Shown piece after piece: positions 7,085 through 38,162 of a DNA stretch of 64,000 bases. The translations under genes and the position numbers were made by a program. A model generated the notes under the pieces. It had not been told where the DNA came from. It was given only the letters and a program-made list of their open reading frames with translations, and searched no databases. This stretch comes from a bacterium (GTDB lineage: Bacteria; Hydrothermota; Tepidihabitantia; SM23-42; JAOAFX01). The stretch is taken from assembly GCA_036796695.1 (NCBI GenBank), contig DAIRCK010000012.1:8524-72523 (forward strand), written 5' to 3'. The stretch's first letter is position 1; each line of letters starts with the position of its first letter.

Positions 7085-7308
7085 CGATACGAGCAGCGAA
7101 ACCGTATAACGATAGACGATAAAAATAGGGACTTCAGTCCTGAGAAATTTGAGGCTAAACTCTCTACTCCATATTTTTTCTCGCTACTTGCTACTCTCTA
7201 CTCGCTACTCTCTACAGAGTTAATAATTTTGAATTTGTTTCGGATTTCGTGCTTCGGATTTCGGATTTAACTCTGATACGGGACGCGACACCGTATAACG
7301 ATTAACGA
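7085..7308. repeat. Two approximately 35-bp direct repeats (gatacgagcagcgaaaccgtataacgatagacgat and gatacgggacgcgacaccgtataacgattaacgat) flanking about 155 bp of low-complexity tandem repeats (tactcgctactctc x2, ttcggat x4) and a small hairpin
   Basis: Seen directly in the sequence. The region is noncoding in any plausible frame. Confidence 0.45.
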
Positions 7309-8330
7309 TCTTTTTCTCCATCGGTTCTGCCAATCGCCCTAATTATATGCCTCAATTCCTCTATCAATATTTTAAAACCATCAATGGTCAAGGATTGGGG
7401 ACCATCTGACAATGCCTTATCTGGATTATTATGAACCTCAACCATTATTCCATCTGCACCTGCGGCAATCGCTGCCCTGGAAAGGGGCAAGACCATATCC
7501 CTTTTTCCTGAAGCATGGCTCGGGTCTACAATTACGGGCAGATGTGATACTTTCTTTAATTCAGGAATACTACTAATGTCAAGGGTAAAACGGGTGAAAT
7601 CACTAAATGTCCTTATCCCCCTTTCGCAAAGAATGACATTATAATTACCTTCAGACATTATATATTCTGCAGCAAGGAGAAATTCTTGGATTGTTGATGC
7701 CATTCCCCTTTTTAATAAAATTGGTTTTTTGCTCAATCCTGCCTTTTTTAATAGCGAATAATTCTGCATATTCCTGGCACCAATCTGGATAACATCAACA
7801 TACTCTTCAACAAGAGGAAATGTCTCGGTATCAATCGCCTCTGAGACAACTGGCAAACCCGTTTCTTTCTTTGCTTTAGCAAGGATCTTTAGTCCTTTCT
7901 CACCAAGACCCTGGAATGTGTATGGTGAGGTCCTTGGCTTGAATGCCCCTCCCCTGAGCATATCTGCACCAAAACTCTTTACTGCCCTGGCAATCTCAAT
8001 GGTCTGTTTTTCAGACTCAACTGCGCAGGGCCCAGCAATGATTACTGGTTTTCTATCTCCAATTATTACATCACCAACCTTTATCTTTGTATCATCCGGT
8101 TTCATCTCCCTGCTGGTCAGTTTATAAGGCTTGGTAACGACAATCACATCTATCACACCATCAAGCCCCTCAAGCCTATTTTTATCAACCATATCTTTAT
8201 TTCCTGTTATACCGATTGCTACACGCTGGGCACCCTTTATAGGGTGTGGTTTCAAACCCATCTGTTTTATAACCCTGCACACATTTTTAATCTGTTCATC
8301 AGTTGCATCTTTATGCATCACAACGAGCAT
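7302..8330 (-). CDS. aroF: 3-deoxy-7-phosphoheptulonate (DAHP) synthase, type I-beta with N-terminal regulatory domain
   Basis: The core resembles the Thermotoga-type DAHPS/KDO8PS family (…IIAGPCAVES…KPRTSPY-FQG…). It sits at the 3' end of the aromatic supraoperon. Confidence 0.85.
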   Translation of the reverse strand: MLVVMHKDATDEQIKNVCRVIKQMGLKPHPIKGAQRVAIGITGNKDMVDKNRLEGLDGVIDVIVVTKPYKLTSREMKPDDTKIKVGDVIIGDRKPVIIAGPCAVESEKQTIEIARAVKSFGADMLRGGAFKPRTSPYTFQGLGEKGLKILAKAKKETGLPVVSEAIDTETFPLVEEYVDVIQIGARNMQNYSLLKKAGLSKKPILLKRGMASTIQEFLLAAEYIMSEGNYNVILCERGIRTFSDFTRFTLDISSIPELKKVSHLPVIVDPSHASGKRDMVLPLSRAAIAAGADGIMVEVHNNPDKALSDGPQSLTIDGFKILIEELRHIIRAIGRTDGEKDR

Positions 8331-8341
8331 ATTACCTCCTT

Positions 8342-9112
8342 TTATTCCCTTATTGTTGCCTCTTTAAATTTTTTTAGCAACAATTTTAAATCTTCTTTAT
8401 TTCTTATTGCCTCAATTATTCTGCTACCAATTACAACACCATCTGCAACCTGGCACAATCTCTTAACCTGCCCAGGATTTGAAATACCAAATCCTACGAC
8501 AACAGGCTTTTTTACAATCTTTTTAACCTTTCTTATAAATAAGGGCAGGGTTTCAGGAAGGTTTTTCCTGACCCCGGTCGTCCCTGTCACACTCACACAA
8601 TATACAAAACCACTACTCATCTTGCCAATCAATCCTATCCTTTCTCTATTCGATGTCGGCGCAATCAATTGTATTAAATCTATTTTATAATTATCAGCAA
8701 ATTTTTTAATCAAGCCTGACTCCTCAACCACGATGTCTGGCACGATCAATCCTGAAATACCGATTTGAGAAACCTTTTTAAAAAATTTTTTAATACCGAA
8801 TGCAAGGACTGGGTTCAAATAGGTCATAATGACGAGTGGTGTTTCAATCTCTATCTTTGCGATTTCCTCAAGTATCTCATTAAGTGATACCTTATTCTTC
8901 AATGCGATATTTGATGCGTACTGTATCGTCTTTCCATCTGCAATCGGGTCTGAAAAAGGAATTCCTATCTCAATAATGTCTGCGTATAAACTGCTCTCTT
9001 TTATATATTTGATTGATTCTTTAATCCCTGGATAACCTGCAGTAAGGTATACAATCAATGCAGATTCATTATTTTTTTTAAGATATTCAAACTTTTTATC
9101 AATCTTATTCAT
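8342..9112 (-). CDS. trpA: Tryptophan synthase alpha chain
   Basis: The N-terminal ...[10 protein letters not shown]... and [12 protein letters not shown] motifs are typical of TrpA. It overlaps trpB by 8 nt. Confidence 0.9.
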
Positions 9113-10289
9113 AAAACTCCTCTACAATCTCGAGGTCCTTATCACCCCTTCCTGAAAGGTTTACAATGATTATCTTTTCTGGGTCCATCTTCTTTGCCTC
9201 ATTGATTGCAACATAAACTGCATGGGCGCTCTCTAATGCTGGTATTATCCCTTCAGTCTCAGTGAGAATTTTAAATGCCTTGAGTGCCTGTTTATCTGTG
9301 CAAGAAGTGTACTGGACACGACCCCTAAATTTTAAAAATGAATGCTCAGGACCGACCCCTGGATAATCAAGGCCTGGAGCAATGGAATGGGTTGGACTTA
9401 TCTGCCCATCATCATTCTGGAGCACATAACTCATTGCCCCATGGAGCACACCAGGCTTGCCACAGGAGAGTGTAGCAGAATGTGCCTTAGAATGAATTCC
9501 CATGCCTCCAGCCTCAACACCGAGCATTTTTATTTCTGTATCAAGGAAGGGATGAAAAAATCCTATCGCATTACTACCACCACCAACACAGGCAATGAGG
9601 AGGTCAGGCATCCTTCCTTCTATCTTCAATATCTGTTTTTTCGTCTCTTTACCAATGATTGATTGAAAATCGCGCACCATCATTGGATATGGATGTGGAC
9701 CAACGACCGAGCCGATACAATAATGAGTCGTCCTCACATTTGTGACCCAATCCCTTATCGCCTCATTTATCGCATCCTTCAAGGTCTGTGTTCCTGAATC
9801 AACTGGTATAACTTCTGCACCGAGGAGTCTCATCCTTAATACATTCATCCTTTGCCTCTGAACATCCTTTTTTCCCATATATACCACACATTTCAAACCG
9901 AATAAGGCACAGGCAGTTGCAGTTGCTACACCATGCTGTCCAGCACCGGTCTCTGCAATTATCCTATTTTTCTTCATCATCTTTGCAAGAAGGACCTGGC
10001 CAATCGTATTATTTATCTTGTGCGCACCAGTATGGAGGAGGTCTTCCCTTTTAAAATAAATCCTTGCACCTTTTAATCGCTCTGATAGATTCCTTGCATA
10101 GTATAATGGAGTTGGTCTTCCTGCATAATTTCTTAAATAATGATTCAGTTCTCTTTTAAAATCAGGATTGTTCTTAAGACGATTATATGCATCTTCAAGT
10201 TCAATTAATGCCGGCATCAAAGTCTCAGGGACGAATCTGCCACCAAAACTGCCGAAATACCCATTTTTGTCAGGTTTTTTATAAGCCAT
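9105..10289 (-). CDS. trpB: Tryptophan synthase beta chain
   Basis: [13 protein letters not shown]... and HTGAHKINN... with the PLP lysine. The start was taken at the internal MAYKK; the ORF track extends to 10376 in overlap with aroQ. Confidence 0.9.
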
Positions 10290-10719
10290 CTCCTCCCCCA
10301 TTAATAAAGTATTCAAGTGCAAGGATATATCCATACCAGCCAAGCCCTGTAATCTGACCAATGCATACTGGTGCAATCAAACTTTTGTGTCGGAAAGGCT
10401 CGCGACTGTAAATATTGCTGATATGGACCTCTATTGCCTTTATACCAACCCCCTCAATCGCATCCCTTATTGCTACAGAGGTGTGTGTGTATGCACCAGG
10501 GTTTATTATGAGTCCAGAATACTCATCAGAATTATGTATCATCTCTATTATCCTTGATTCAGAATTTGATTGGTATATGTCAACCTGGACCCCTCTTTTC
10601 TCTGCATAATCAATAATCTTTTTATTGATCTCATCAAGTGATAACCTGCCATATACCTCTGGATTCCTCTTTCCCAAAAGATTGAGGTTCGGACCATGGA
10701 TTAAAAGAATTTTTTGCAT
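10279..10719 (-). CDS. aroQ: 3-dehydroquinate dehydratase, type II
   Basis: The 146-aa product reads [20 protein letters not shown]...HISNI-SRE-FRH, the type II DHQase signature. Confidence 0.9.
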
Positions 10720-12251
10720 AAAACCTCCTTTATCTTCACTCTACCAATCTTTTCAAAGATTGGCATCCTTATCTTTTCTCGTTTCATCTTTTTATCCTGT
10801 AAAATAAATCCCTTTATATCCTGTCTTTTAATAAATCCTGGCAGTTCTGCAGGCAAAGAATATTCTTTTAATAGTTCAATAACTTCAACAGGTATTCTAT
10901 TTTTATTAAAAATACATATCTCCTGGACCATCCCTATTGAGACTGCCTCACCATGTGAAAATCTCTTGTATTTGCCCATTTTTTCAATGATGTGCCCAAT
11001 CGTATGGCCAAAATTGAGGATTTCCCTTATCCCTTTCTCTTCAGTCTCATCATCTTTTATTATCCTACCTTTAATCATTACACATTCTTTTATAATCCTG
11101 AAAAGTGTTGCAGGATCGCGTTCCATTATCAATCCCTTTTTTTCTTTAAGGGTCCTAAATAGTTCCTCTGAGCTGATTATCCCATACTTTATAACCTCAG
11201 CAATACCATTGGAAAATTCTCTATCAGGAAGGGTCATAATCTTTTTAATATCACATACTACACATTCTGGTTGATAGAATGTTCCGAGCATATTCTTTCC
11301 ATATTTTGTATTTACTCCATTCTTACCACCTAACGCAGCATCAACCTGGCAGAGCAGGGTAGTTGGAATATATACAAGCTTGCAACCCCTTTTGAATGTG
11401 GATGCGACAAAACCAGCAATATCAGTAATCACACCACCACCAAGACCGAGTATTATATCCTGCCTTTGAAAATTTATCTTGAATAGGTATTCATAGATAC
11501 TCTCTACAGTTTTAATATTTTTGTATGCCTCACCATCGGGTATTATAAGATAATTAACTTCGTTATCCTGCCTTTTCAATGTCTTTGCCAAATCATCAAG
11601 GTAGAGTGCACCAACAAGTGGATTGGTTATTATAAAAATCCTTTTCTTTTTAAATAGAAGATGGCGATTAGAATCAAATATGATTATAACTGGATAGACC
11701 CTTGATTTTGTATGGATCATTATAGATTCACTCTGGTCAGGATAATCTATCTTCTTTAATTCCAATCTCTTTATTATTTCCCTGGCTACCAATTCCGGTG
11801 CCTTCTCTGTTGTATCAATCTTTATCTCAGCAAAATCATATATTCCTTTTCTCTGCTCCAGAAGATTAAAAAAATCTTTTTTTGATTTGACCAATGGCCT
11901 TGAACCATCCATTTTTATCCTCTTTAATAGAGTCTCTAAATTTGCATAAAGCTGGATAACCCTGCCTGTTTTTTTCAATATTTCACGATTCTTCTCATTC
12001 TTAACAATCCCTCCACCTGTCGCAATAACTACATTCTTCAATCCTTTTATTTTTTCCAGAACCCAGTGCTCTCTTTTCCGAAAATATTCTTCACCTTCCT
12101 TCTCAAAGATTTCTTTTATTGATCTCTGTTCCGCAAGTTCAATCATTCGGTCTGTGGAAAGATAACCAAAATTTAAATTTTCAGCAAGGATTCTACCGAT
12201 TGTATCCTTGCCAGTGCCCATAAATCCTATTAAGATTATGTTTTCAGACAT
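10701..12251 (-). CDS. aroKB: Bifunctional shikimate kinase (N-terminal) / 3-dehydroquinate synthase (C-terminal)
   Basis: The N-terminal P-loop GFMGTGKDTIG is AroK. The C-terminus (...GGGVITDIAGFVAS...LVYIPTTLL-QVDAALGGKNGVN...) is AroB. Confidence 0.85.
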   Translation of the reverse strand: MSENIILIGFMGTGKDTIGRILAENLNFGYLSTDRMIELAEQRSIKEIFEKEGEEYFRKREHWVLEKIKGLKNVVIATGGGIVKNEKNREILKKTGRVIQLYANLETLLKRIKMDGSRPLVKSKKDFFNLLEQRKGIYDFAEIKIDTTEKAPELVAREIIKRLELKKIDYPDQSESIMIHTKSRVYPVIIIFDSNRHLLFKKKRIFIITNPLVGALYLDDLAKTLKRQDNEVNYLIIPDGEAYKNIKTVESIYEYLFKINFQRQDIILGLGGGVITDIAGFVASTFKRGCKLVYIPTTLLCQVDAALGGKNGVNTKYGKNMLGTFYQPECVVCDIKKIMTLPDREFSNGIAEVIKYGIISSEELFRTLKEKKGLIMERDPATLFRIIKECVMIKGRIIKDDETEEKGIREILNFGHTIGHIIEKMGKYKRFSHGEAVSIGMVQEICIFNKNRIPVEVIELLKEYSLPAELPGFIKRQDIKGFILQDKKMKREKIRMPIFEKIGRVKIKEVLCKKFF

Positions 12252-13308
12252 CTTTAATCCTTTTTAAATATTGTTGATAATTCTTTTTCATATCCAGTAT
12301 ATTATCACCGCCAAATTTTTCACAAAATGCCAGGGCAAGGACATAGGCAAGCATTGATTCTGCAATTACACTGATCGCTTCAACTGCACAGACATCGGCT
12401 CTAAAGACTGGTGCAGGACAAGGTCTTTTATTCTTTATATCAAAAGATTTTAACGGATTCTGGAGTGTAGGGATCGGTTTTATATACAACCTTATAAAAA
12501 TCCTTTCTCCATTGCTCATACCACCCTCAATCCCACCTGCATTATTGGTCTTATGATAAAATCCCATTTTTTTATCATAAAATATCTTATCATGAACAGC
12601 AGAGCCATAATGCATTGATGAAAAGATCGCCTCTCCAATTTCAATCCCTTTTACTGAAGGTATTGATAGCATCGCCATACCAATCATACCATCAAGCCTC
12701 TTATCAAATTGTGTATAACTTCCAAGACCTGGACAGACACCATCAGCATAAACCTCAACAATCCCACCGAGTGTATCACCCCTTTGTTTTGCCTGGATTA
12801 TTAATCTTTTTATCTTATTTCTATCCTTTTCCTTTCCAATCTGTCTCACCTGTGAACTTATCGCTATATTAAATTCTTTAAGCAGGAGTTTAAACACCGC
12901 ACCTGCTGCAACCCTTGATACAGTCTCCCGTGCCGATGCCCTTTCAAGGACATCCTGGATATCTAAAAAACCAAATTTCAAAAGACCTGCAAAGTCTGCA
13001 TGGCCAGGTCTGGGAATGGTTATTGAATCTTTAGTTTTTTGTGATAAGAATTCATCCCTGCGATAGTCCTTATTTTTAATAAAGAGCGTTATAGGTGAAC
13101 CGATGGTTTTGCCCATCCTCACACCTGAAAGGATTTCAACAGGCTCTTCTTCCAGTTCCATCCTTTTGCTCCTGCCCATTCCCTGCTTTCGCCTCTTCAA
13201 TTCTTGTCTTATAAAATCAGGGCTGATCTTTAATCCTGCAGGGATTCCATCAATGATTACTGACATACCCTGATTATGTGATTCACCACCTGTTAACATC
13301 CTTATCAT
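12244..13308 (-). CDS. aroC: Chorismate synthase
   Basis: LTGGESHNQG....GRSKRMELEEE... and GGMSNGE motifs. Confidence 0.9.
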   Translation of the reverse strand: MIRMLTGGESHNQGMSVIIDGIPAGLKISPDFIRQELKRRKQGMGRSKRMELEEEPVEILSGVRMGKTIGSPITLFIKNKDYRRDEFLSQKTKDSITIPRPGHADFAGLLKFGFLDIQDVLERASARETVSRVAAGAVFKLLLKEFNIAISSQVRQIGKEKDRNKIKRLIIQAKQRGDTLGGIVEVYADGVCPGLGSYTQFDKRLDGMIGMAMLSIPSVKGIEIGEAIFSSMHYGSAVHDKIFYDKKMGFYHKTNNAGGIEGGMSNGERIFIRLYIKPIPTLQNPLKSFDIKNKRPCPAPVFRADVCAVEAISVIAESMLAYVLALAFCEKFGGDNILDMKKNYQQYLKRIKDV

Positions 13309-13309
13309 T

Positions 13310-14077
13310 CTACACCTCCTTTAATGCTATCTTCATTAAATTGACCGGTCTATATCCAGTCCAGAGTTTGAATGAATACGCTGCCTGGTGAATTAGCATA
13401 GAGATACCATCTATCAACTTTATTTTCTTTGATTTTGATAATTTAAAACGATAATTTATATCATAATACACACTACCGGGTTTTAAAAACGGAATGACCA
13501 TATCCTGGATATCAACAGATGTGCCATTTATAACGATATCCATATTTGACGCATATTGAGAGATTTGTGAAAAATGGATTTTCTTTGCAGGATAGATATG
13601 CAAAATAGATTCAATCTTAGATTCAGTCCTATTAGTAATAAAGACTTCTTTGGGATTTTTTTGACCGAGGAGATATAGACAGGCACGAACAACACCACCA
13701 GCACCAATTATGAGAACCTTTTTATCTTTCAGTCCAATTTTGTGTTCTTTTAAAGAATAAGCAAATCCATAGACATCGGTATTATCACCAATTATCTTCT
13801 TATCCTTTATAACTACTGTATTAACTGCCCCAATCTTTCTGGCGACTGGTGTAAGTTCATTTAAATATTCCATAATCTTAGTCTTATATGGATTTGTGAT
13901 ATTAAAACCAGTAAATCCAAGTTTTATCAATTTATGGAAAACCTCTCCAAGGTCATCAGGTGGAATAGAGAGGAGAAAATAGATACCCTTTATTTTCAAT
14001 CTTCTAAATGCAAAATTATGGATCTTTGGCGAGAGTGTATATTTTAGAGGATAACCGATCACACCAGTGAGGAACAT
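13310..14077 (-). CDS. aroE: Shikimate dehydrogenase
   Basis: GVIGYPLKYTLSP-IHN-AF...NVT-PYK...GAGG-VRA. Confidence 0.85.
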   Translation of the reverse strand: MFLTGVIGYPLKYTLSPKIHNFAFRRLKIKGIYFLLSIPPDDLGEVFHKLIKLGFTGFNITNPYKTKIMEYLNELTPVARKIGAVNTVVIKDKKIIGDNTDVYGFAYSLKEHKIGLKDKKVLIIGAGGVVRACLYLLGQKNPKEVFITNRTESKIESILHIYPAKKIHFSQISQYASNMDIVINGTSVDIQDMVIPFLKPGSVYYDINYRFKLSKSKKIKLIDGISMLIHQAAYSFKLWTGYRPVNLMKIALKEV

Positions 14078-14676
14078 CGCCGCACCTCTTTTATAAATTC
14101 CCGAATTTTTTCTGGGTCTTTTTTACCTGGTGAGCTTTCCACACCTGAACATACATCAACACCATAAGGTCTTAGCATCTTTATCATTGTGCCAACATTC
14201 TTCTCATTTAATCCACCGGCAACGATAAACCTACCTCCAATGGTTTTTATTATCTTCCAATCAAATGTCCTGCCACTCCCTTCACCAGGGTCAAATAGAT
14301 ATGCTGAAACAGAATATCCAGCCATCTCTTTGATGATACCAACTGGATTTGAACTATCATCAATTTTGATCCTCTTTATAATCCGCACACCTTTTATAAG
14401 CCTGCAATATTCGGGTGGTTCAGATCCGTGTAATTGAACGACGTCTATCCCGGTTAAACTGATTATCTTGTTTACCACATCAAGCCGCTCATTTTTAAAT
14501 ACACCAACCGTTGTAATAAATGGTGGTAATTTCTCAATGATATTCTTTGCTATTTCGGGTTCAATATTTCTTGGTGAAGGGGCGAAGATAAAACCAAGCG
14601 CATCGGCGCCAAAATTAGATACGATGAGTCCATCCTCAAGATTGGTAATGCCGCAGACCTTTATTTTAATACTCAT
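14059..14676 (-). CDS. trpF: Phosphoribosylanthranilate isomerase
   Basis: The start MSIKIKVCGIT...DALGFIF was chosen; the ORF track extends 14 codons upstream. Confidence 0.85.
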   Translation of the reverse strand: MSIKIKVCGITNLEDGLIVSNFGADALGFIFAPSPRNIEPEIAKNIIEKLPPFITTVGVFKNERLDVVNKIISLTGIDVVQLHGSEPPEYCRLIKGVRIIKRIKIDDSSNPVGIIKEMAGYSVSAYLFDPGEGSGRTFDWKIIKTIGGRFIVAGGLNEKNVGTMIKMLRPYGVDVCSGVESSPGKKDPEKIREFIKEVRRCSSLV

Positions 14677-15754
14677 CAAGCCACCTGGTTCCTTTTTGAA
14701 AAACTTTTTTAAATGCATCCCTTTTCCCTTTTTTCACAATTTTCATTAGTGCATCCATACACATTGTTAAATTTTTATATAAATCAAGGGTATAAGGATT
14801 TAGCGATTGGATTTCATAATAAAGTTCTGGATTTTCCTTTATCACACTATTGGTTGTCTCCATCTGGGCATTGAATGTTGTACTGGCAATTCTTTTCAAA
14901 TCTTTAAATTCGTAGCCACTATCCATAAGATTTTTTATAAAAAGAACATTTATAAAATGGGAAAGACCGAGAACATATGAAACGAGTCTGTCGTGCTCAT
15001 CAAATGAAAGATTAATGATTCTAACTGCGGTATTCTTGAAAATATTCATTATCATACCATTCGCCTCAGGTGAACCACAATCACAGAGACAGACAACTTT
15101 ATCACTGAGGGTCCGACAGGATGGACCAAACATTGGATGGATGGATGTAATTTTAATATTTTTCTCAATTGCTTTTTTAATTGCTGGAATTATGTGGCTC
15201 TTCACACTTGCAATATCACAGACAACCGCATTGCAATTTAGTTCTGTAAGGGTTTCAATTATATCGGGGACAATAGCAAGCGGTGTAGAAATGACCACCA
15301 GTGATTTTCCTTTTAATCCAGATTTTATATCTTTATAATAACTAAAACCACAACGCCCGGGCAGTTTTATATCATTTATTGCTACCCTGTGCCCTTGATT
15401 CTGCAGGAAATAAGCAAACCATCTGCCCATTCCACCCAGTCCACCAACAATGAGCACATCCTCCTTTTTCCCGGAATAAACTGAATAATGCAATCTCTCC
15501 TGCTGGATACGGGATTGCTCAATGATTTTAGTAATGAGTGTCCGTGTAAAATTTATATCAAGACCAATACCTTCCGCATATCTAATTCCATTTTCAATCA
15601 CGCTCTTTTCTACACTCCAATCCTGGAGTGCAATTCCCATTTTTTTCTTTTCTCTGCCGATCGCATCGCTCAATAACATTCGCTTCTGGATTAGGTTCAA
15701 TATCTTCTGGTCGGTCTTTTTTATTTTCATTCTGAGAAGTTTTAATCGATCCAT
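14666..15754 (-). CDS. tyrA: Bifunctional chorismate mutase (AroQ class, N-terminal) / prephenate dehydrogenase
   Basis: The N-terminal roughly 90-aa CM helix bundle (LRMKIKKTDQKILNLIQKRMLLSDAIG) is followed by the NAD-binding GGLGGMG PDH domain. Confidence 0.8.
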   Translation of the reverse strand: MDRLKLLRMKIKKTDQKILNLIQKRMLLSDAIGREKKKMGIALQDWSVEKSVIENGIRYAEGIGLDINFTRTLITKIIEQSRIQQERLHYSVYSGKKEDVLIVGGLGGMGRWFAYFLQNQGHRVAINDIKLPGRCGFSYYKDIKSGLKGKSLVVISTPLAIVPDIIETLTELNCNAVVCDIASVKSHIIPAIKKAIEKNIKITSIHPMFGPSCRTLSDKVVCLCDCGSPEANGMIMNIFKNTAVRIINLSFDEHDRLVSYVLGLSHFINVLFIKNLMDSGYEFKDLKRIASTTFNAQMETTNSVIKENPELYYEIQSLNPYTLDLYKNLTMCMDALMKIVKKGKRDAFKKVFQKGTRWLDEY

Positions 15755-16515
15755 TTCAATTCCTTTATTTTTTCTGCCATATCATCTGCCTTCAATATAG
15801 AAGTACCAACGAGTATCCCATCAAAACCAGCATCCTTCAATCTCCTCACATCCTCTGCCTTTTTAATTCCACTCTCACTCACGGTATAATATCGCTCGGG
15901 AACCGATTCTATCAAATTTAGAGAAATATTGATGTCGACTTCAAAATTATTTAGATTCCGATTATTAATACCGATTATCTCGGTATCTGTATTAAATGCC
16001 TTTTTTAAATCATCGATTGTATGGACTTCAACGATCGTCGCCATACCAAGTTTATGGGCAAGTCGGACAAATTCTTTCAATCTTTCAGGGCTCAATATAC
16101 AGGCAATGAGTAGTATGGCATCAGCAAAAATTCCACAGGATTCATAAATCTGATATTCATCAATGATAAAGTCTTTCCTCAACACAGGTAGTTTTGTGAA
16201 TTTTTTTACATTTTGTATATCTTCATTTCTTCCGCTGAAAAATTTTTCATTCGTTACAACCGATATGCCATCAGCACCGGATTTTTCATAGATAAAAACA
16301 ATCTTCTCTATGTCCAATCCGTTTATAATCGCTCCAGTTGATGGTGATGACCTTTTTATTTCAGCGATGAGTGCGATTTGCCCATTTTTGAAAATCTTTT
16401 TAAAATCGCGCCTTTCTTTGTTCTCGGTTTTTAACAGTTCTTTAAGTGGCTTCAAACCCTTTTTTTTATCTATCTCATTTTTTGTGTTCTCAATTATCAC
16501 TTTTAGTATGTCCAT
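15742..16515 (-). CDS. trpC: Indole-3-glycerol phosphate synthase
   Basis: IAEIKRSSPS-G...FI-DEYQIYE....GADAILLI...NNRNL. Confidence 0.9.
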   Translation of the reverse strand: MDILKVIIENTKNEIDKKKGLKPLKELLKTENKERRDFKKIFKNGQIALIAEIKRSSPSTGAIINGLDIEKIVFIYEKSGADGISVVTNEKFFSGRNEDIQNVKKFTKLPVLRKDFIIDEYQIYESCGIFADAILLIACILSPERLKEFVRLAHKLGMATIVEVHTIDDLKKAFNTDTEIIGINNRNLNNFEVDINISLNLIESVPERYYTVSESGIKKAEDVRRLKDAGFDGILVGTSILKADDMAEKIKELKWID

Positions 16516-17530
16516 TTACAAACCTCCTCAGTTCCTCAAGTTTATTTAATGCGGCACCAGAAAAAATTGATTCCCGAGCCATTTCCACCCCCTGTTTAAT
16601 AGTCTCAGCCTTTCCAGAAACATATATTGCGGCGCCTGCATTTAATAGTGCAGTATCTGTTTTGGGTCCTGGTTCACCTTTTAAAATAGAAATAAATGAA
16701 TCAATATTTTCCTTGTTATTCCTCACCCTTAATTCTTCCATACTACATCTTTTCATTCCATAATCCTCTGGAGAAATCTCGAATTCCATAATGCCCTTAT
16801 TCTTTATCTCAAGCACATAGGTTCTGGCGCTGGTTGTTATCTCATCAATTCCATCCGCACTGTATACGATTAATGCGTGCCTGACACCGAGGTTGTTCAA
16901 TGTCTTTCCAATTTTTTCGAGAAATTCCTTTCTACATACCCCGATGACCTGTTGTTCAACCAATGCAGGATTACATATTGGTCCAAGGATATTGAAAATT
17001 GTCCTGATACCAATCTCTCTTCTTGGCCCAATTACATTTTTCATTGCCGGGTGAAAGAGCGGAGCAAAGAGAAAACCAATTCCTATTTTTTCTATGCACT
17101 CCTTTATTAGTTCATAATCAATATCAAGTTTAATGCCCAGTGCGGAAAAAAGATCAGCACTTCCACAAAGGCTTGAGACCGACCTGTTTCCATGTTTTGC
17201 CACAAAACAGCCCGCACCTGCAGCAATAAATGCTGAGGTCGTTGAAATGTTGAATGTATGCATTCCATCACCACCAGTGCCACAGGTATCAACAAGATTT
17301 TGAGCCTGGCAGTTTATCTTTATCATCTTTGTGCGCATTGCCTTACAGAAACCTGTAATTTCCTCTATGGTCTCACCCTTCATCCTTAACGCAGTTAGCA
17401 AGGATGCTATCTGGGCTGGTGTTGCTTTGCCCTCCATAATTTCAATACATACCTGATATGCCTCATCTTCATTCAATGATTTATTTTCTACAATCTTTTT
17501 TATTGCATCTTGTATCCTTGACTCAGACAT
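16490..17530 (-). CDS. trpD: Anthranilate phosphoribosyltransferase
   Basis: [34 protein letters not shown]. The start was taken at MSESRIQ. Confidence 0.9.
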
Positions 17531-18518
17531 TATACCTCCTTGTATTAAAACAGGAAAAGTTTCCAGTGTGGCAGGCGACCCCATTCTGGTTCACTATTGC
17601 AAGGATTGCATCGCGGTCGCAATCTGCCCTCAATTTTATAACATCCTGAAAATTCTTTGATGTCCTTCCTTTTAGCCATAATTCCTTCCTGCTTCTTGAA
17701 AAATACCACATCTTTCCCGTCTCAAATGTTTTTCTTAATGATTCCTTATTCGAATACGCCAGCATCAATACAAGACCCGATATATCCTGTGTAATTGTTG
17801 GAATCAATTCGCTTTTCCAGTTAAGTGATTCTATAAATGCATCAACAAGTGAAATTCGTTTTGTATATAATGCCATTCCCAGCTGGACATCGATATCCAT
17901 CGCCGCGAGAATTTTTACCTCGTTCAGCGATGACACACCACCTGCCACGGTTATTTTTTTATCAGTTTTTTCACGAATTGCCTTCGCCTTTTCAATATTA
18001 ATGCCTTGCATCATTCCCTCTGTTTCAACAAATGTAAAGAGAAACTCATTCGTGTATGATTCAAATTCCTTTATTACATCAAATAATTCGATATCTGTCT
18101 TCTTTTGCCATCCACTGACAACAATTTTGTTATTGAATGTATCAAGTGCAATGATGATTCTCTCCTGTCCTATTTCCTTTTTCAGGGCAGAAAGAAATTT
18201 GTGGTTGATATTTCCTTTCTCAAATGCCCTGGAACCGATAATAATTTTATTTGCACCAGCAAGGATCAATTCCTTTGCCTTTTCAATACTTCTTATACCG
18301 CCGCCAACGCGACAATCTGCTACCTTAAGCAAATCTTTGATTAAATTCAGATTTTCGCCTTTGCCCATTGCTGCATCAAGGTCAATAACCGCAACCTCAT
18401 TATACCGATTAAACTCTTTTGCAAGTTTCACTGCATCATCATATTCTAAAACCTTTTCTCTACCCTGTCTTAACTGAACAACCTTATTATTCATCAAATC
18501 AATAGAACCTATTACCAT
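17523..18518 (-). CDS. hisA/hisI: Fusion protein: ProFAR isomerase HisA (residues ~1-235) + phosphoribosyl-AMP cyclohydrolase HisI (residues ~236-331)
   Basis: The N-terminal (beta-alpha)8 HisA carries IDL…GGGIRS…GGVSSL. The C-terminal [68 protein letters not shown] is the HisI PRA-CH signature. Confidence 0.8.
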
Positions 18519-19267
18519 CTCACCCTCACTCCTTTCTTTTTAAGAAATCTTTTTATCTGTGGGATTGTAAATTTTTTATAATGGAGAACCGATGCGAGAA
18601 GAACCGCATCAGCATTCCCATACTTTATCACATCATAGATTTGGTTTAAATTACCTGCGCCTCCTGATGCAATAATCGGAATCTTTACAGCCGATGATAC
18701 AGCATCTGTCAATTCAATATCATAACCCATCTGTGTCCCATCGCGGTCAATGGAATTCAATAGTATCTCTCCAGCACCAAGTTCTTCACACCTTTTTGCC
18801 CATTCTATCACATCAATCTTAGTATCAACCCTTCCTCCATATGTGTAGCAATGCCATTTATTATTTACCTTTGCCGCATCAATTGAAATCACAATACACT
18901 GGGAACCAAATATCCTTGCACCTTCACTTATCAATTTAGGATTTTCAATGGCACCGGTGCAAATCGCCACCTTATCCGCACCAGCATTGAGTAAAACCCT
19001 CATATCCTCTATCTTTCTTATACCACCACCAACGCATAGCGGAATAAAAACCTTCTTTGCAACCGCATTCACAACATCAATTATTGCCCTTCTCTTCTCC
19101 ACGGACGCAGTGACATCAAGGAAGATTAATTCATCAGCACCCTGGTCATTGTAGTATTGGGCAAGTTTTACTGGGTCACCTGCAACATTTAAATTCTTAA
19201 ATTTTATCCCTTTTACAACCCTGCCTTTATCAACATCAAGACAGGGTATTATTCTTATCGTCAGCAT
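18512..19267 (-). CDS. hisF: Imidazole glycerol phosphate synthase cyclase subunit
   Basis: [34 protein letters not shown]. Confidence 0.9.
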
Positions 19268-19860
19268 AGTTCTACCCATCTCTTTAATAAATCAAGTCCA
19301 GCCTTCCCACTCTTCTCAGGATGGAACTGGACTGCATATATATTTCCCTTATTAATGACTGATGGATAACTGATTCCGTATTCGGTGCGACCGAGTACAA
19401 TCTCTTCTTCTGGTGTATCAAGATAATAACTGTGTAGAAAGTAAAAATAAACTTTCTTCCTTTGGGATTTAAAAATTGGCGATGGCTTTATCACCTCTAC
19501 ACTATTCCATCCAATCTGAGGAATTTTGGACATTTGGAATTTTCTCATCCGTCCTTTGAATATACCGAATCCACTAACACCTTCTGCCTCTTCACTTGAT
19601 TCAAATAAAAGTTGGAGACCGAGGCAGATACCAAGATAGGGCTTATCTGCATTTAGCCATTCAATCAATCTTTCCAACAACCCCATCTTTTTCAGTTTTG
19701 TAATTGCCGCACCAAATGCACCAACACCAGGTAGTATTATCCGTTCTATATTTTTAAGCCCTTTCTCATCCTTTATTAGACGATTCTTCAAGCCCAAATA
19801 ATCAAGGGCATTCTTTATTGAATGCAAATTCCCTGCACCATAGTCTATAATCCCTATCAT
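19261..19860 (-). CDS. hisH: Imidazole glycerol phosphate synthase glutaminase subunit
   Basis: MIGIIDYGAGNL-S--NAL...GICLG-QLL triad region. Confidence 0.9.
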   Translation of the reverse strand: MIGIIDYGAGNLHSIKNALDYLGLKNRLIKDEKGLKNIERIILPGVGAFGAAITKLKKMGLLERLIEWLNADKPYLGICLGLQLLFESSEEAEGVSGFGIFKGRMRKFQMSKIPQIGWNSVEVIKPSPIFKSQRKKVYFYFLHSYYLDTPEEEIVLGRTEYGISYPSVINKGNIYAVQFHPEKSGKAGLDLLKRWVELC

Positions 19861-20435
19861 ATCACCCCTTTTGTGCTCGGCACATAGTCTTTGTTAATTG
19901 TGCATGCCTGTTTTAGGGCATGGGCAAATGCCTTGAATATTGCCTCAAGTTTGTGATGGTCAGACCTTCCACATATTAATTGAATGTGTAAAGTGCACTG
20001 GCATCCATTAGCAAACCCGGCAAAAAAATCCTGTATTACATCGGTCTTCAACTCACCGATTTTGTCGCTTCTAAAACTGCCCGAGAATTTCAAAAAAGTC
20101 CTGCCTGAGATATCAATCGCAACCATTGCCAGTGCTTCATCCATTGGATATATGAAGCACCCTGCCCGATTTATTCCTTTCTTATCTCCTAATGCCTTAT
20201 TCAATGCAAGACCGAGACAAAGACCTGTATCCTCAACCAGATGGTGCTGGTCAACTTCAATATCACCGTTTATCTTTGCCTTTATATCAAATCCGCTGTG
20301 CCGACTCAATGTTTCAAGCATATGATTCAAAAATCCAATCGGTGATTCAATATCCGATTCTCCTTTACCTTCTATTTTTAATCTTATATGAATATCTGTC
20401 TCCTTCGTCTTTCTTTCTATCTCCCCTTTTCGCAT
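19857..20435 (-). CDS. hisB: Imidazoleglycerol-phosphate dehydratase
   Basis: R-TKET-I-I-L...D-HH--EDTG--LG-A. Confidence 0.9.
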   Translation of the reverse strand: MRKGEIERKTKETDIHIRLKIEGKGESDIESPIGFLNHMLETLSRHSGFDIKAKINGDIEVDQHHLVEDTGLCLGLALNKALGDKKGINRAGCFIYPMDEALAMVAIDISGRTFLKFSGSFRSDKIGELKTDVIQDFFAGFANGCQCTLHIQLICGRSDHHKLEAIFKAFAHALKQACTINKDYVPSTKGVI

Positions 20436-21493
20436 CCTGCACCTCCTTTTTTTAATATCTGATTTAAATTTTTTAAAAATGTATCATTCTCTTCAGGCTT
20501 TCCAATTGTTACCCTGAGCATATCTTTTAAAAGAGGATTACTGAACCTCCGCAAAAGTATACCTTTTTTATAGAGCCGCTCAAATAATGACCCTGCTGAA
20601 TGATTTTTTATTTTAAAGAGAATAAAATTCGCCCTTGATGGAACTGGACTTATTTGGGGAATGACCTCTAATTCCCTGAATACCCTCTCCCTTTCCTTAA
20701 CAATCTTATCAACAACCATTTTAACAAACCTTCTTTTCTTTAACAAATAATCACCTGCGACCTGCTGGAATATTCCTACAGAGAATGGAAGTTTTGTTTT
20801 TACAATCTGTCTTGCTATCTCAGGTTGGGCAAGGAGATAACCGAGCCTTATCCCGGCAAGTCCAAAAGCCTTTGAGAATGTCCTCAGTATTAAGAGGTTA
20901 TCATACTTATTAAGGAGTCGCTGCGCAGTCAAACCATAAAATTCAAAATATGCCTCGTCAATTACTACAATGGACTTTTTCATTTTAACAATCTCTTCTA
21001 TCCCATCTATACTTATTGAAGTTCCAGTTGGATTGTTTGGTGATGCGATGAATGTTATCCTTGAATTATATACATTCCTGCATAATCCCTCTACATCAAA
21101 AGAGAAGTCTTCTTTGAGTCGCACCTCATTTATTCTCAGGTTCATTATCTTTGATAGATATGGATAGATTGCAAAACCCGGTGTAATAAGTGTAACATTA
21201 TCGCCTTTATCACAATAGGTAAGGATTATTGCGAGTATCAATTCGTTTGAACCATTACCGATTATTGTCCCTTCAACTGGAAAATCTGTATAACGGGAAA
21301 GGGACTTCTTTAAACTTAGTAATTCGTTTGATGGATACCTGTTCCAGGATAATCTAATCAGCCTATTTGCTATCTCTTTTTTGTATTCTAATGGTATATC
21401 AAATGGCGATTCATTCTGATTCAATTTTATCCTTGCCTCCTGGGGAACCTCATAAGCGGGCAACTGGATTACTGAATCTTTGATTCTTATCAT
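20417..21493 (-). CDS. hisC: Histidinol-phosphate aminotransferase
   Basis: Class II aminotransferase; ...KLNQNESP... and the SKAFGLAG-R-GY PLP-lysine region. Confidence 0.85.
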   Translation of the reverse strand: MIRIKDSVIQLPAYEVPQEARIKLNQNESPFDIPLEYKKEIANRLIRLSWNRYPSNELLSLKKSLSRYTDFPVEGTIIGNGSNELILAIILTYCDKGDNVTLITPGFAIYPYLSKIMNLRINEVRLKEDFSFDVEGLCRNVYNSRITFIASPNNPTGTSISIDGIEEIVKMKKSIVVIDEAYFEFYGLTAQRLLNKYDNLLILRTFSKAFGLAGIRLGYLLAQPEIARQIVKTKLPFSVGIFQQVAGDYLLKKRRFVKMVVDKIVKERERVFRELEVIPQISPVPSRANFILFKIKNHSAGSLFERLYKKGILLRRFSNPLLKDMLRVTIGKPEENDTFLKNLNQILKKGGAGCEKGR

Positions 21494-22344
21494 ACTACAA
21501 CCTTTCTGAATTCATATTCAAGGATGTCAGTCGCACCAAGTCTCTTTAACTGGGGAATAAGTTTTATTACCTCACTCTTCTTCACCGCCACCTTCACTGC
21601 AAATCCTCTTGCGCCATATAAAGGAGCCACAGTTGGCGAACGCATACAGGGCAAGATTTTGACAATTCTATCGAATTTCTCCTTAGGCACATTCATCTCA
21701 AGCATCACCCTTTCCCGCGCATCAAGCACTGATTGAAATAACATCCTTAATTCCTCAATTTTGTTTCTTTTCCAGGGGTCTTTAAGTATTTGCCTGCCTG
21801 CGATGAATCTCGTGGTTGATTCCATAATCACCTTAAATACTTTCAATTTATGCTCCCTCAAAGTATTCCCGGTTGCTGTGTTATCAATTATCATATCTGC
21901 GTCTTCAGGCGGAAAAACTTCAGTCGCTCCATAGGTGCGTAAGTATTTAAATCTGAACCCTTCTTTATTTAGAAAATCTCTGGTCAATCGTTCATACTCT
22001 GAGGCAACGATTATTTTTTTCTTACGCAGGGTTGAAATTTCTGTGGTTTCAGGGATTGCAGATACAATCTTTACTGGGTCTAATTTCAAATCCATAATCT
22101 CAATCACATCGGCATTTGATTCTATAACCCAATCCTTCCCTGTGAAACCCGCATCATGTGAACCAATCTCAATCAAATCCGGTATATTCTGGGGTCTGAG
22201 TATCTTAACTTGAAGTTCAGGGTCATTAACAAAAGGCCTGTAAACCCTTTCATTAATGTTAATATATATCCCTGCATCATTAAAAAGTCTGATCACGCCC
22301 TCAAAGATACTTCCTTTGGGTATGACAATTTTCAATCTTTTCAA
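21490..22344 (-). CDS. hisG: ATP phosphoribosyltransferase, long form with C-terminal regulatory domain; TTG start
   Basis: LKIVIPKG---E-----F-DAG...D-GF-G-DWV... The RBS GGAGG lies 5 nt upstream of the TTG. Confidence 0.9.
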   Translation of the reverse strand: MKRLKIVIPKGSIFEGVIRLFNDAGIYININERVYRPFVNDPELQVKILRPQNIPDLIEIGSHDAGFTGKDWVIESNADVIEIMDLKLDPVKIVSAIPETTEISTLRKKKIIVASEYERLTRDFLNKEGFRFKYLRTYGATEVFPPEDADMIIDNTATGNTLREHKLKVFKVIMESTTRFIAGRQILKDPWKRNKIEELRMLFQSVLDARERVMLEMNVPKEKFDRIVKILPCMRSPTVAPLYGARGFAVKVAVKKSEVIKLIPQLKRLGATDILEYEFRKVVV

Positions 22345-22434
22345 TCAAACCTCCTTTCATTGATATAAATTCAAAGAATGGTTTTTTATATTTTTTTTAA
22401 TTTTATGGATTATGTATGTGGTAAAAAAGTCGTT

Positions 22435-22486
22435 GCACTTCCGGGACCAAAAAGGATATATTGACCCTTATTGGGCCCGGAAGTGC
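22435..22486 (-). terminator. Leader attenuator, an intrinsic terminator inside the his-trp-aro 5' leader: the 11-bp stem gcacttccggg/cccggaagtgc, followed on the minus strand by AACGACTTTTTTA
   Basis: An inverted repeat plus a T-run on the transcribed (minus) strand sits about 90 nt upstream of the hisG start. Confidence 0.55.
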
Positions 22487-22610
22487 CAATACCAGTAATG
22501 ATTAAAGTGGAATCTTGTGTGGTTGTGGTTAAGTGCAAATAAATCCGATGTTGTCCTTACAGAGCAATCGGTCTTTAAATATTTATTCAAATAAATCTTA
22601 ACCACGATGC

Positions 22611-22639
22611 AAGTATATTCAAAAAAAGAATTTTGTCAA
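22611..22639 (-). promoter_or_regulatory. Sigma70-type promoter of the his-trp-aro supraoperon (TTGACA-N17-TATACT on the minus strand)
   Basis: The reverse complement of 22634-22639 is TTGACA and of 22611-22616 is TATACT; the spacer is 17 nt. It lies downstream of the terminator of the preceding minus-strand gene. Confidence 0.55.
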
Positions 22640-22715: not shown

Positions 22716-23850
22716 TTAATCCGCAATCACTATCTTAACGCAGCCTTTTAATGTTGATGTGTTTAACCGTATGAAATAAACCCCGGATTTTACATTCTCT
22801 CCATTACTATCTTTTCCATTCCAGACAAAATTGAATCCATCCTGTATCCAAATTCCTTTATAAAGTGTATTCACAAGTTTACCTGCAACATCATAGATAC
22901 TGCACTCAACAGATGTTCCCTTTTTGATTGGAGATAAAATGTGAACTATGTCTCTTGCTGGATTAGGATATACTGTCAAATAGAAATGATTATTTACATC
23001 TGTATTTTTTTCACTTTCTTGAGCTCCTACACCGTAGAAGCCGGCGACCTTTAAGACCGCCCCTGGACAGGAAGTTCAGGTACCGTACTGGTAAAGTGTT
23101 AACCAGTATGTCCCGTCTCTTGGATCACGAACAACACCCCGGATATTACAGGAATCTGCAGGGTATAATCTGAAGAAATTTATTTTCTGACAGTTCACAG
23201 GATTTAAAGCAAAGACACCTGCACTATCAAGGGTCGAACTGGTGTTGAAAAATGTGTATGCATTGAGTAAATGGGCCGGGTTAGCACCCTGGGCAGGGAC
23301 ATAATCAAGACATCTTGATCCATACCAGGCACCCTGATAAGGATGGTTCATCTGCCTGATTACCGTGCCCATTGTATCCACACAATAGATATATTGAGTC
23401 TGACCACCGCTCGACCTTCTATCTGAGATATAGATCTGACGATTTGTATTATCCCAGGCAAGTCCACAAGGATAATCAATATAAGAGACACTGAAAGAAC
23501 GTAGGACTGCCCCGGATGTATTTATTTTATAAACAGTCTTGTGGCGTTTATTCAGAACCCAGAATGTATTGTCATAGGCGCAGTATTTTAAATCCACACA
23601 ACCACTGTCATTATTTGGAGCGGGAATCGTGCCATAACTTGTAACGAAACTGTCTGAAGAAGCGATGTAGATGACCTGTGTTGTGTAATTAACATAATAG
23701 ATACGATTCGTATTCGGGTTATAAGTAATTCCATAGGTTCCCTGAGGATAAACACCCCTTAACCAGTATCTTTCACCAATCAATCGCGTAGGAGATTGAG
23801 GCCGTAATTACAATTAGAACGAGGCTTGAAAAGATTATTTTTTTAACCAT
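22716..23850 (-). pseudogene. Disrupted T9SS cargo gene: signal-peptide ORF (MVKKIIFSSLVLIVITASISYAIDW*, 23771-23850), frameshift into the 235-aa beta-propeller-like body (23076-23783), then a single in-frame TGA (23076-23078) before the intact T9SS CTD (22716-22979)
   Basis: The reading frame runs continuously across the TGA (…YQYGT*TSCPGAVLKVAGFYGVGAQESEKNTDVNNHFYLTVYPNPARD…). The signal peptide is in a different frame from the body, and the repeated gattgattgg sits at the junction. Confidence 0.55.
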
Positions 23851-37141: not shown

Positions 37142-37534
37142 ATGTCTGGCATTATTTTTTTTAAAACCAGAGAGCTAAATAAAATTAAAGATTTTTATGC
37201 AAAAAGGATTGGAATGGAAATCTGGTTGGAACAGACAGATTGCGTGATTATGAAACATGATAATCTATTACTCGGTTTCTGTCAGCGCGAAGAAATGGAA
37301 AACCAGGGCGTTATCACATTCTTTTATGAAAATACTGACCAGGTCTATGAAATGTATAAAAAATTCCGCCTTGAGGCATTAGCCGAGCCAGCAGTAAATG
37401 AAAAATACAATATTTACCATTTTTTTATCAAAGACCCTGAAGGCAGATTGGTTGAATTTCAAACTTTCTTGCCTCAACAAAAGGGGACAGGCACTTTTTT
37501 TATTTCCATTTTGCTGGCCTACCTCGCGCTCTAA
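37142..37534 (+). CDS. Glyoxalase/VOC-family small protein
   Basis: The pattern resembles a VOC beta-alpha-beta-beta-beta module; the match is weak. Its 3' end overlaps the convergent transposase gene. Confidence 0.5.
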   Translation: MSGIIFFKTRELNKIKDFYAKRIGMEIWLEQTDCVIMKHDNLLLGFCQREEMENQGVITFFYENTDQVYEMYKKFRLEALAEPAVNEKYNIYHFFIKDPEGRLVEFQTFLPQQKGTGTFFISILLAYLAL

Positions 37535-38162
37535 TCGTAGATTCCAATCCTAAATTTTTACAAATTTTAATTTGCCATTCTTCTTCTCCATAGGGAGCCT
37601 GACGATTTATGCTATTTCTTAATTTTTCTAAATCATTAAAAGATAATGGTTCATCAACAAATTTAGTCCAGTGAGAAGGAATATCTATCGGGGGATTACT
37701 TAAAATTTTATTGGGTATCAAGTTGATTCTTTCTCGATGTGATGACCATTCCCATTCAACTGCTGAATTTACTAATTTTGCCCTTACTGGATTGCCTTCA
37801 ACGTATCTCAAAACTGTTAATAAATAATTGTTTTCCTGAACAATAAAACTTTTGTATCTTCCCTGCCAGATGTGTCCACTTGTACCATAATGTTTATGAT
37901 AACGGCGCACATGGGTCGTCATAATTAAATGCATAAAATTACTTAAATTTTCACCTTTCAATGGCATAGCCACTATATGAAAATGATTTGGCATTATACA
38001 ATAAGCGAATATTCTAATATCAAATTCAATCCTTGCTGAAGAAATTAATTCTATGAATACTCGGTAGTCTTGTTCTTTACGAAAAACTATTTGCCCTCCG
38101 TTACCACGGTTTAATATATGATAAATCAATCCATCAACTATGCTACGCGCAATCCTTGGCAT
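37500..38162 (-). CDS. IS200/IS605-like Y1 (HUH) transposase of the REP-associated (RAYT) type; orphan, with no IS ends recognised
   Basis: The HUH motif CIMPNHFHIV and the catalytic Tyr region LRYVEGNPVRA. At 220 aa it matches RAYT-like rather than minimal IS200 TnpA. Confidence 0.75.
   Translation of the reverse strand: MPRIARSIVDGLIYHILNRGNGGQIVFRKEQDYRVFIELISSARIEFDIRIFAYCIMPNHFHIVAMPLKGENLSNFMHLIMTTHVRRYHKHYGTSGHIWQGRYKSFIVQENNYLLTVLRYVEGNPVRAKLVNSAVEWEWSSHRERINLIPNKILSNPPIDIPSHWTKFVDEPLSFNDLEKLRNSINRQAPYGEEEWQIKICKNLGLESTIRARGRPAKWK

Follow-up and report, generated by a model that had tools for sequence, protein, structure and literature searches.

The gene fusions of histidine biosynthesis catalogued by Fani 2007 (PMC1963479) comprise hisA/hisF elongation, hisIE, hisHF, hisNB and hisIED, with hisA-hisI not included, and a 2023 review (PMC10138114) counts seven fused his genes, hisA not among them. 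The single literature mention of such an arrangement is a 2024 survey of archaeal fusions (PMC11237513), which reports 'HisA/F fusions with HisIE' in four metagenomic assemblies. Here we describe a hisA-hisI gene from a bacterium of candidate division WOR-3, located on contig DAIRCK010000012.1 (GenBank assembly GCA_036796695.1) within a stretch of 64,000 nucleotides (nt; contig positions 8,524 to 72,523), hereafter the window, to which coordinates refer unless another locus is named. The gene most likely encodes a bifunctional N'-[(5'-phosphoribosyl)formimino]-5-aminoimidazole-4-carboxamide ribonucleotide (ProFAR) isomerase and phosphoribosyl-AMP (PR-AMP) cyclohydrolase for the consecutive steps 3 and 4 of the pathway, and we put at about 0.85 the probability that this bifunctional enzyme descends from a trifunctional HisA-HisI-HisE protein by deletion of HisE, and not from hisA joined to a lone hisI.

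The bifunctional HisIE enzymes (Escherichia coli/Shigella 6J2L; Acinetobacter baumannii, PMC10242683; plant HISN2, PMC8102479) carry a homologous HisI domain with the same Zn and Mg ligands (match of the window domain to 6J2L, E 2e-24), but their partner is a C-terminal HisE, giving steps 2 and 3, whereas the partner in the window protein is an N-terminal HisA, giving steps 3 and 4, and HisE is lacking. Monofunctional HisA/PriA proteins (Thermotoga maritima 1QO2, Salmonella enterica 5A5W, Mycobacterium tuberculosis 3ZS4) have the same barrel, the Asp pair and the phosphate-binding glycine motifs, although identity to the window barrel is only 20-28% and the last helix of the latter runs directly into HisI. 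Stand-alone HisI (the 'minimised HisIE' of Chlorobi/Rhodothermota, PMC8305728; Methanothermobacter thermautotrophicus 1ZPS) is likewise a HisI without HisE in cis; the Chlorobi/Rhodothermota form, however, is not fused to HisA and has its own conserved C-terminal extension of ~25 amino acids (aa). Yeast HIS4 (HisI-HisE-HisD, PMC1963479) and the larger metagenomic fusions described below are also multi-enzyme chains around a HisI core; both differ from the window protein in their partners and domain order, and HIS4 lacks HisA. Closest of all is the trifunctional HisA-HisI-HisE protein (~414 aa), which shares with the window protein 57-65% identity over aa 1-324, the domain order, the junction and the position after hisF; the window protein differs in missing the 83-90-aa HisE, of which a 7-aa remnant is left, and in having Arg for Glu in the motif WxKGETS.

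The gene, its parts and the gene overlapping its 3' end are as follows.

17523..18518, minus strand: hisA-hisI coding sequence, 331 aa; single unbroken open reading frame (ORF), Pfam and NCBIfam domains, same gene call on independent contigs
17841..18518, minus strand: HisA (beta-alpha)8 barrel, aa 1-226, catalytic D7 and D126; PF00977, alignment to T. maritima HisA 1QO2, Foldseek
17547..17840, minus strand: HisI (PRA-CH), aa 227-324; PF01502, NF000768, alignment to 6J2L and 1ZPS, motif survey
17523..17546, minus strand: 7-codon tail N-T-R-R-Y-N-V and TGA; codon-level comparison with HisE-containing relatives
16490..17530, minus strand: trpD, anthranilate phosphoribosyltransferase, 346 aa; Pfam, gene call

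An earlier sequence-only reading of this DNA had proposed that HisA and a complete HisI with its zinc-binding region are fused, linking steps 4 and 3. The domain search it suggested bore this out, as both profiles matched over essentially their full length within the one ORF: PF00977 (His_biosynth) on aa 1-222 (profile 1-227 of 228, E 1.9e-47) and PF01502 (PRA-CH) on aa 252-325 (profile 1-74 of 74, E 1.1e-32, 112 bits vs. a cutoff of 27). PF01503 (HisE, PRA-PH) had no Pfam match in the 331-aa protein, whose chain stops 7 aa past the HisI domain. The top NCBIfam models were the HisA model TIGR00007 for aa 2-226 and the HisI model NF000768 for aa 227-326, the latter above its cutoff (131.7 vs. 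126 bits); the bifunctional HisIE model NF002747 matched at profile positions 5-107 of 208 only (132.7 bits vs. a cutoff of 187). On the barrel, HisA models outscored HisF (53 bits) by far, and a separate hisF lies upstream. In an alignment to HisA of known structure, D7 and D126 correspond to D8 and D127 of T. maritima; across 120 family members D126 is invariant and D7 at least 90% conserved. All Cys, His and Asp ligands of HisI are present: D299, C300, D301, D303, C316, H317 and C323 align to 1ZPS and 6J2L and are invariant in the family, with D299/D301/D303 forming the Mg site, C300/C316/C323 binding Zn and H317 being catalytic (roles taken from PMC8102479). The HisI SRS motif is present as S274-R275-S276, and the motif WxKGE(T/S)S reads W281-L-K-G-R285-T-S, in which W281, K283, G284, T286 and S287 are kept and Arg stands at Glu285. 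An AlphaFold2 model built with 120 family sequences gave, for the whole chain, a predicted local distance difference test score (pLDDT) of 91.4 and a predicted template modeling score (pTM) of 0.89, with eight strand/helix units in the barrel, and the Foldseek neighbors closest to the barrel were PriA/HisA structures with bound ProFAR or its isomer, the phosphoribulosyl form PRFAR (target-normalized TM score 0.86-0.87). The PDB holds no chain that spans both HisA and HisI domains.

Since a fusion of this kind could be produced by an assembly or sequencing error that merged hisA and hisI or truncated the 3' end, it matters that the identical protein was called on four contigs from independent sources (JGI, Logan, NCBI), which refutes this explanation and leaves it a negligible probability. 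The same architecture with a conserved junction recurs in at least nine other species, no HisE signal was found in any frame, and the trpD start lies 8 nt ahead of the stop, leaving no room for a missing segment. The junction (about nt 17810-17850), at which the earlier reading had wanted a frameshift excluded, is free of one: the junction sequence (14 residues, followed by ..LIPTI) is conserved in more than 120 homologs.

In the function proposed, PR-AMP would have its adenine ring opened by the C-terminal HisI domain; the resulting ProFAR (step 3) would be isomerized to PRFAR by the N-terminal HisA barrel (step 4), and PRFAR would then be handed to HisH/HisF, encoded directly upstream. The enzyme is probably a dimer via its HisI domain, by analogy with HisI and HisIE structures, in which two chains together form the Zn site (PMC8102479). 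Within the HisE-less clade, the ratio of nonsynonymous to synonymous substitution rates (dN/dS) is 0.09-0.18 for HisA and 0.05-0.10 for HisI, showing that purifying selection acts strongly on the two domains that are left. A PriA-like dual HisA/TrpF function was ruled out by a separate trpF (PF00697, E 1.4e-49) at 14059-14718 in the same operon.

We examined the best 120 homologs from a database of 5.8 billion proteins and the best 80 of 475 matching stretches in a GTDB scan with one genome per species. The sequence-only reading had called the fusion unusual and presented it as one without HisE, and this survey corrects both points: all 120 homologs carry HisA and HisI, and all 80 GTDB matches span aa 1 to ~330, the junction included, in more than 15 phyla. 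The HisA-HisI junction is thus no oddity and is a common module in uncultivated lineages, occurring in at least 80 GTDB species; what stands of 'unusual' is that the fusion is little described and, as the earlier reading had said, outside the classical lists cited above. The nearest 25 homologs (66-91% identity, 328-345 aa) have two domains and belong to candidate division WOR-3, whereas below ~65% identity nearly all are ~414 aa long with PF00977, PF01502 and PF01503 in the order HisA-HisI-HisE; identity to 119 family members in the family alignments is 57-90%. HisE is fused in 64 of the 80 GTDB loci, missing in 15 and cut by a contig end in one. Among representatives of 50%-identity clusters, 207 matched at E<=1e-30, and ~85 of the top 150 align over both domains. 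Bacterial carriers comprise WOR-3, KSB1, KSB3 (Vecturithrix, Moduliflexus), Calditrichia, Ignavibacteria, Planctomycetota, Marinimicrobia, Spirochaetes, Aminicenantes, Zixibacteria, Halanaerobiales and other Bacillota, Wallbacteria and Delongbacteria; archaeal carriers, all metagenome-assembled genomes (MAGs), comprise Iainarchaeum, Nanoarchaeota (DPANN) and MAGs labelled Methanobacteriota or Thermococci. The trifunctional HisA-HisI-HisE protein thus appears to be the standard and ancestral form in an operon family hisG-(hisC)-hisB-hisH-hisF-hisAIE, which has probably spread over many, mostly uncultivated phyla by horizontal transfer, and the window protein a secondary HisE-deletion derivative. 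A large, taxonomically wide HisA-HisI(-HisE) family is missing from standard accounts of his fusions.

Evidence on how HisE was lost comes from the 17-gene operon of the window (7302-22344, minus strand), which reads hisG-C-B-H-F-hisA-hisI-trpD-C-tyrA-trpF-aroE-C-KB-Q-trpB-A-DAHPS. The same order is common to loci with HisE (L010, L018-L020, L022, L024, L027, L030, L037, L041, L043, L051) and loci without it (L001-L009, L031, L040, L046, L054, L072), so the loss of HisE happened in place. A tree of the HisA-HisI region groups the window and L001-L009 as one HisE-less clade. A second tree, computed from 11 proteins of the operon with HisAI left out (3020 columns, neighbor-joining, 100 bootstraps with support values not displayed), places the window clade, L040, L031/L046 and L072 on one side and L010 and the HisE-plus clade opposite; L054, an independent loss of HisE, is nested in the HisE-plus clade. 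At the 3' end, the HisE-plus relatives read gaa tta AGG AGG cga aga aaa TGA (ELRRRRK, stop), the trpD ATG overlapping the stop, and the window reads tgt ttt aat aca AGG AGG tat aAT Gtc TGA, the trpD ATG at 17530-17528 again overlapping the hisA-hisI stop (ATGTCTGA; overlap 8 nt). The tails of HisE-less proteins, among them ..SCFNIRR and ..CFGNRRY (each followed by the stop), can be aligned to ..ELRRRRK, the C-terminal end of HisE. The two Arg codons AGGAGG (17540-17535 in the window) lie 4-7 nt ahead of the overlapping trpD ATG and constitute the Shine-Dalgarno sequence of trpD, and the 7-aa tail is recognizable as the remnant of the C-terminal end of HisE; as the tail codons match the end of HisE, the deletion was an internal, in-frame one, sparing the trpD translation signals. 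On one WOR-3 branch, this deletion thus cleanly removed ~83 HisE codons, the last ones being spared because they carry the ribosome-binding site and overlapping start codon of trpD.

A second, recent loss can be read at locus L054, whose closest relative is L024. In L024, an exact 12-nt direct repeat, TTAGAAGAATTA (LEEL), stands at both ends of the HisE domain, whereas L054 has a single TTAGAAGAATTA copy with nothing between and no HisE, which shows deletion between the direct repeats as the mechanism. The family thus presents domain loss caught in the act, in one case through direct repeats; where such deletions can end is limited by the signals for translating the gene that follows. L054 has also lost hisG (935 nt in L024 reduced to ~50 nt), so steps 1 and 2 are gone and step 3 onward is kept, and the histidine pathway may be decaying in that genome. 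Protein P0096, which has the same tail as L054, was seen on six contigs. In P0103 (WOR-3, 401 aa) and in the KSB3/Moduliflexus loci L029, L033 and L059, a HisE-like C-terminal domain lacks the ExxE...ExxD metal ligands, and these tails look like pseudo-enzyme remnants, between the trifunctional and bifunctional forms. L031 and L046 are two contigs of one MAG (Zod_Metabat.699), each with a his operon and a HisE-less hisA-hisI, representing either a duplicated operon or a bin mixing two strains.

The state of L054, which relative to L024 has neither the HisE domain nor hisG, together with the ligand-less HisE tails of the four proteins just named, would fit the explanation that loss of HisE stopped histidine synthesis and that the window gene is turning into a pseudogene in an auxotroph. 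The window clade nevertheless keeps six intact his genes, syntenic in 10 species at 56-90% identity, with dN/dS of 0.05-0.18 and all catalytic residues, and a leader peptide with many His codons is conserved upstream, making decay of the pathway there very improbable.

Several findings count against descent from a trifunctional enzyme and the bifunctional function assigned. The HisA domain scores under the NCBIfam equivalog cutoffs (TIGR00007, 168.3 vs. 228.95; NF010112, 154.8 vs. 243), and the barrel is therefore a diverged HisA. No enzyme assay has been reported for any member of the HisA-HisI(-HisE) family. NCBI and JGI name the family only 'phosphoribosyl-AMP cyclohydrolase' or 'HisIE'. 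Both trees are neighbor-joining trees, the HisAI tree without bootstrap and the operon tree without displayed support. The phosphate-binding motif of HisI has Arg for Glu285, the HisI site thus being changed in some way. Finally, as the sequence-only reading had claimed for the protein and its surroundings, no HisE homolog was found in the window, in a 7.5-kb extension of it or in the ±10-kb flanks of all 15 HisE-less loci. The names have a consequence of their own, as 'HisI' or 'HisIE' hides the HisA domain and HisA then seems absent in metabolic reconstructions of WOR-3, KSB1, Calditrichia, DPANN and others.

If HisE was deleted, step 2, the pyrophosphohydrolysis of phosphoribosyl-ATP (PR-ATP), falls to another protein, and it is probably supplied in trans, either by a stand-alone hisE at an unlinked site or by a nucleotide pyrophosphatase that is not homologous to HisE, encoded beyond the ~72 kb covered here. 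A profile of 90 HisE domains, run at maximum sensitivity, found no HisE in six frames of the 64-kb window (best E 1.5); a 71-kb JGI contig with this region adds the 7.5 kb, at the left, with no his genes; and 20 small and mid-sized window ORFs showed no MazG or Nudix domain. A search for stand-alone HisE with the HisE domain of L010 returned only two matches. Since at least two more his genes have to be encoded elsewhere in the genome, the lack of hisE in the window is a weak indication that the genome as a whole lacks it. We consider it possible, though somewhat doubtful, that the WOR-3 clade of the window has no HisE homolog at all and that step 2 is performed by a non-homologous enzyme or a remodelled HisI domain. 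There are precedents: Chlorobi and Rhodothermota have HisI and yet no detectable HisE homolog in the genome (PMC8305728), and PR-ATP pyrophosphatase is missing in 19/208 experimentally prototrophic genomes (~9%; bioRxiv 10.1101/2024.10.14.618325). Repeated loss or decay of HisE in one operon family supplies matched natural comparisons that could expose a missing PR-ATP pyrophosphatase, and, should it be true that no HisE homolog exists, the otherwise identical operon in HisE-plus and HisE-less sisters would allow phylogenetic profiling to identify the missing enzyme; if hisE merely lies elsewhere in the genome, the interest is mainly for specialists in pathway evolution and genome annotation.

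A more radical version, which those precedents also favor, is a HisE-independent pathway with no PR-ATP pyrophosphohydrolase gene, in which an altered HisI takes or hydrolyzes PR-ATP, or in which the product of a HisG variant needs no HisE. Glu285 of WxKGE(T/S)S lies in the proposed phosphate-binding loop of HisI (PMC8102479), and among close relatives it is kept in 141/141 HisE-plus members and replaced in 34 of the 38 HisE-less ones (by R, K or Q in the window clade, R in L040, A in L031/L046 and L in L056; codon 285 of the window gene is nt 17664-17666). It is kept in HisE-less L054, P0090, P0096 and P0109, and also in L072, only L054 being shown as a recent loss. Every HisE-less locus has HisG R12S and K50R, and phosphoribosyl-ADP (PR-ADP) is not processed by canonical HisIE (PMC10242683). 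Across 50%-identity clusters, however, Glu/Asp versus another residue at this site is unlinked to the presence of HisE (34:10 vs. 6:3, Fisher P = 0.67); stand-alone HisI of Salinibacter, Longibacter and Gracilimonas, which have a separate HisE, carries Q or A at site 285 (PMC8305728 supplementary alignment); the position varies in other HisI proteins presumed functional; and the replacements include A and L, more like relaxed constraint than the gain of a positive charge. The HisG pair S12/R50 also occurs in L010 and L034 with intact HisE, other family members having R12/K50, and the equivalent positions in M. tuberculosis HisG are A/R. HisA and HisF each have two monophosphate-binding sites, given which triphosphate intermediates would be unlikely. 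A HisE-independent pathway is accordingly a decidedly unlikely explanation.

Two candidate signatures were dropped on these grounds: the Glu285 change as a sign of HisE-independent chemistry, because of the cluster-level result and the Q/A residues of HisE-bearing organisms, and HisG R12S with K50R as the mark of a new substrate, the pair being a clade marker only. We take the Glu285 pattern to reflect a local easing of constraint once HisE had been unlinked; it does not prove new chemistry. The residue may relate to HisE-to-HisI channelling of PR-AMP, which has been reported (PMC10242683). In HisG, the swap of Arg between sites 12 and 50 looks like compensation.

The remaining genes of the operon, beyond hisA-hisI and trpD, are these.

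21490-22344, minus strand: hisG (long form); Pfam
20417-21493, minus strand: hisC; Pfam
19857-20435, minus strand: hisB; Pfam
19261-19860, minus strand: hisH; Pfam
18512-19279, minus strand: hisF; Pfam
7302..16515, minus strand: trpC, chorismate mutase-prephenate dehydrogenase, trpF, aroE, aroC, aroK-aroB, aroQ, trpB, trpA and 3-deoxy-D-arabino-heptulosonate 7-phosphate (DAHP) synthase; Pfam, synteny in 25 loci
14666-15754, minus strand: chorismate mutase-prephenate dehydrogenase fusion
10701-12251, minus strand: aroK-aroB fusion

This supraoperon brings together genes of the histidine, tryptophan, tyrosine and shikimate pathways, whose starts and stops overlap, in an order kept in ~25 WOR-3-type loci, and the upstream his gene order is conserved in related loci. 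The 17 genes do not include hisD, hisE, hisN (the histidinol-phosphatase gene), trpE/G or aroA.

Upstream of hisG lie a promoter and a 260-nt leader, with the elements listed here.

22413..22639, minus strand: candidate attenuator with promoter, leader ORF, hairpin and U-tract; sequence, conservation among loci
22639-22634 (-35) and 22617-22612 (-10), minus strand: putative promoter TTGACA-16-TATACT, near-consensus
22605 (GTG) to 22468 (TAA), minus strand: leader ORF of 45 codons, possibly leaderless, ending ...LNHNHTRFHFNHYWYWHFRAQ before the stop
22486-22425, minus strand: hairpin of 13 bp, with a U-tract at 22418-22413

The leader ORF closes with a run of 18 codons (NHTRFHFNHYWYWHFRAQ), 12 of which encode His, Trp, Tyr or Phe, the operon's four end products, and the final leader codons form the 5' arm of the strong hairpin, which the U-tract follows. 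Stalling of a ribosome at the YWYWHF codons would cover the terminator arm, and the leader looks like a ribosome-mediated attenuator sensing four amino acids at once. The length of the leader ORF is identical in six clade members, and ~120 nt are nearly invariant over nine aligned clade loci; the YWYWHF core, the hairpin and compensatory stem changes (CCGGG/CCCGG vs. CCGAACC/GGUUCGG) recur in L040, L046 and L010. Loci with a leader element are L001, L003, L005, L007, L009, L010, L040, L046, L072, L018-L027 and L043. In L072 and the HisE-plus clade (leader MNNND...RYYVYPYIFYYSWWHKN....), aromatic-rich leaders and hairpins of unrelated sequence occupy the same position. Against Rfam, nothing in the window reached the gathering threshold, and the leader region gave only noise.

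Larger metagenomic fusions (P0127, P0146, P0148, P0159, P0166, P0188, P0195 and P0265, with gene calls taken as given) are built on the HisA-HisI core: HisA-I-C, HisA-I-E-G, HisA-I-E-D, HisF-A-I and HisH-F-A-I-E, as well as HisA-I-E-D-C-HAD chains of 1501 and 1586 aa with six predicted activities. Many trifunctional loci carry hisC as a fusion with a HAD-family hydrolase (577 aa; L011, 6342-8072), probably a HisC-histidinol-phosphatase, and in DPANN archaea HisG is added in front, as HisG-HisC-HAD of 765 aa (L076, 5783-8077). Elsewhere in the window, C-terminal sorting domains of type IX secretion occur in several predicted proteins (110-733, 22716-22979), in keeping with a source within the FCB group, and an IS200-like Y1 transposase (PF01797, E 9e-14) lies at 37500-38162 on the minus strand.

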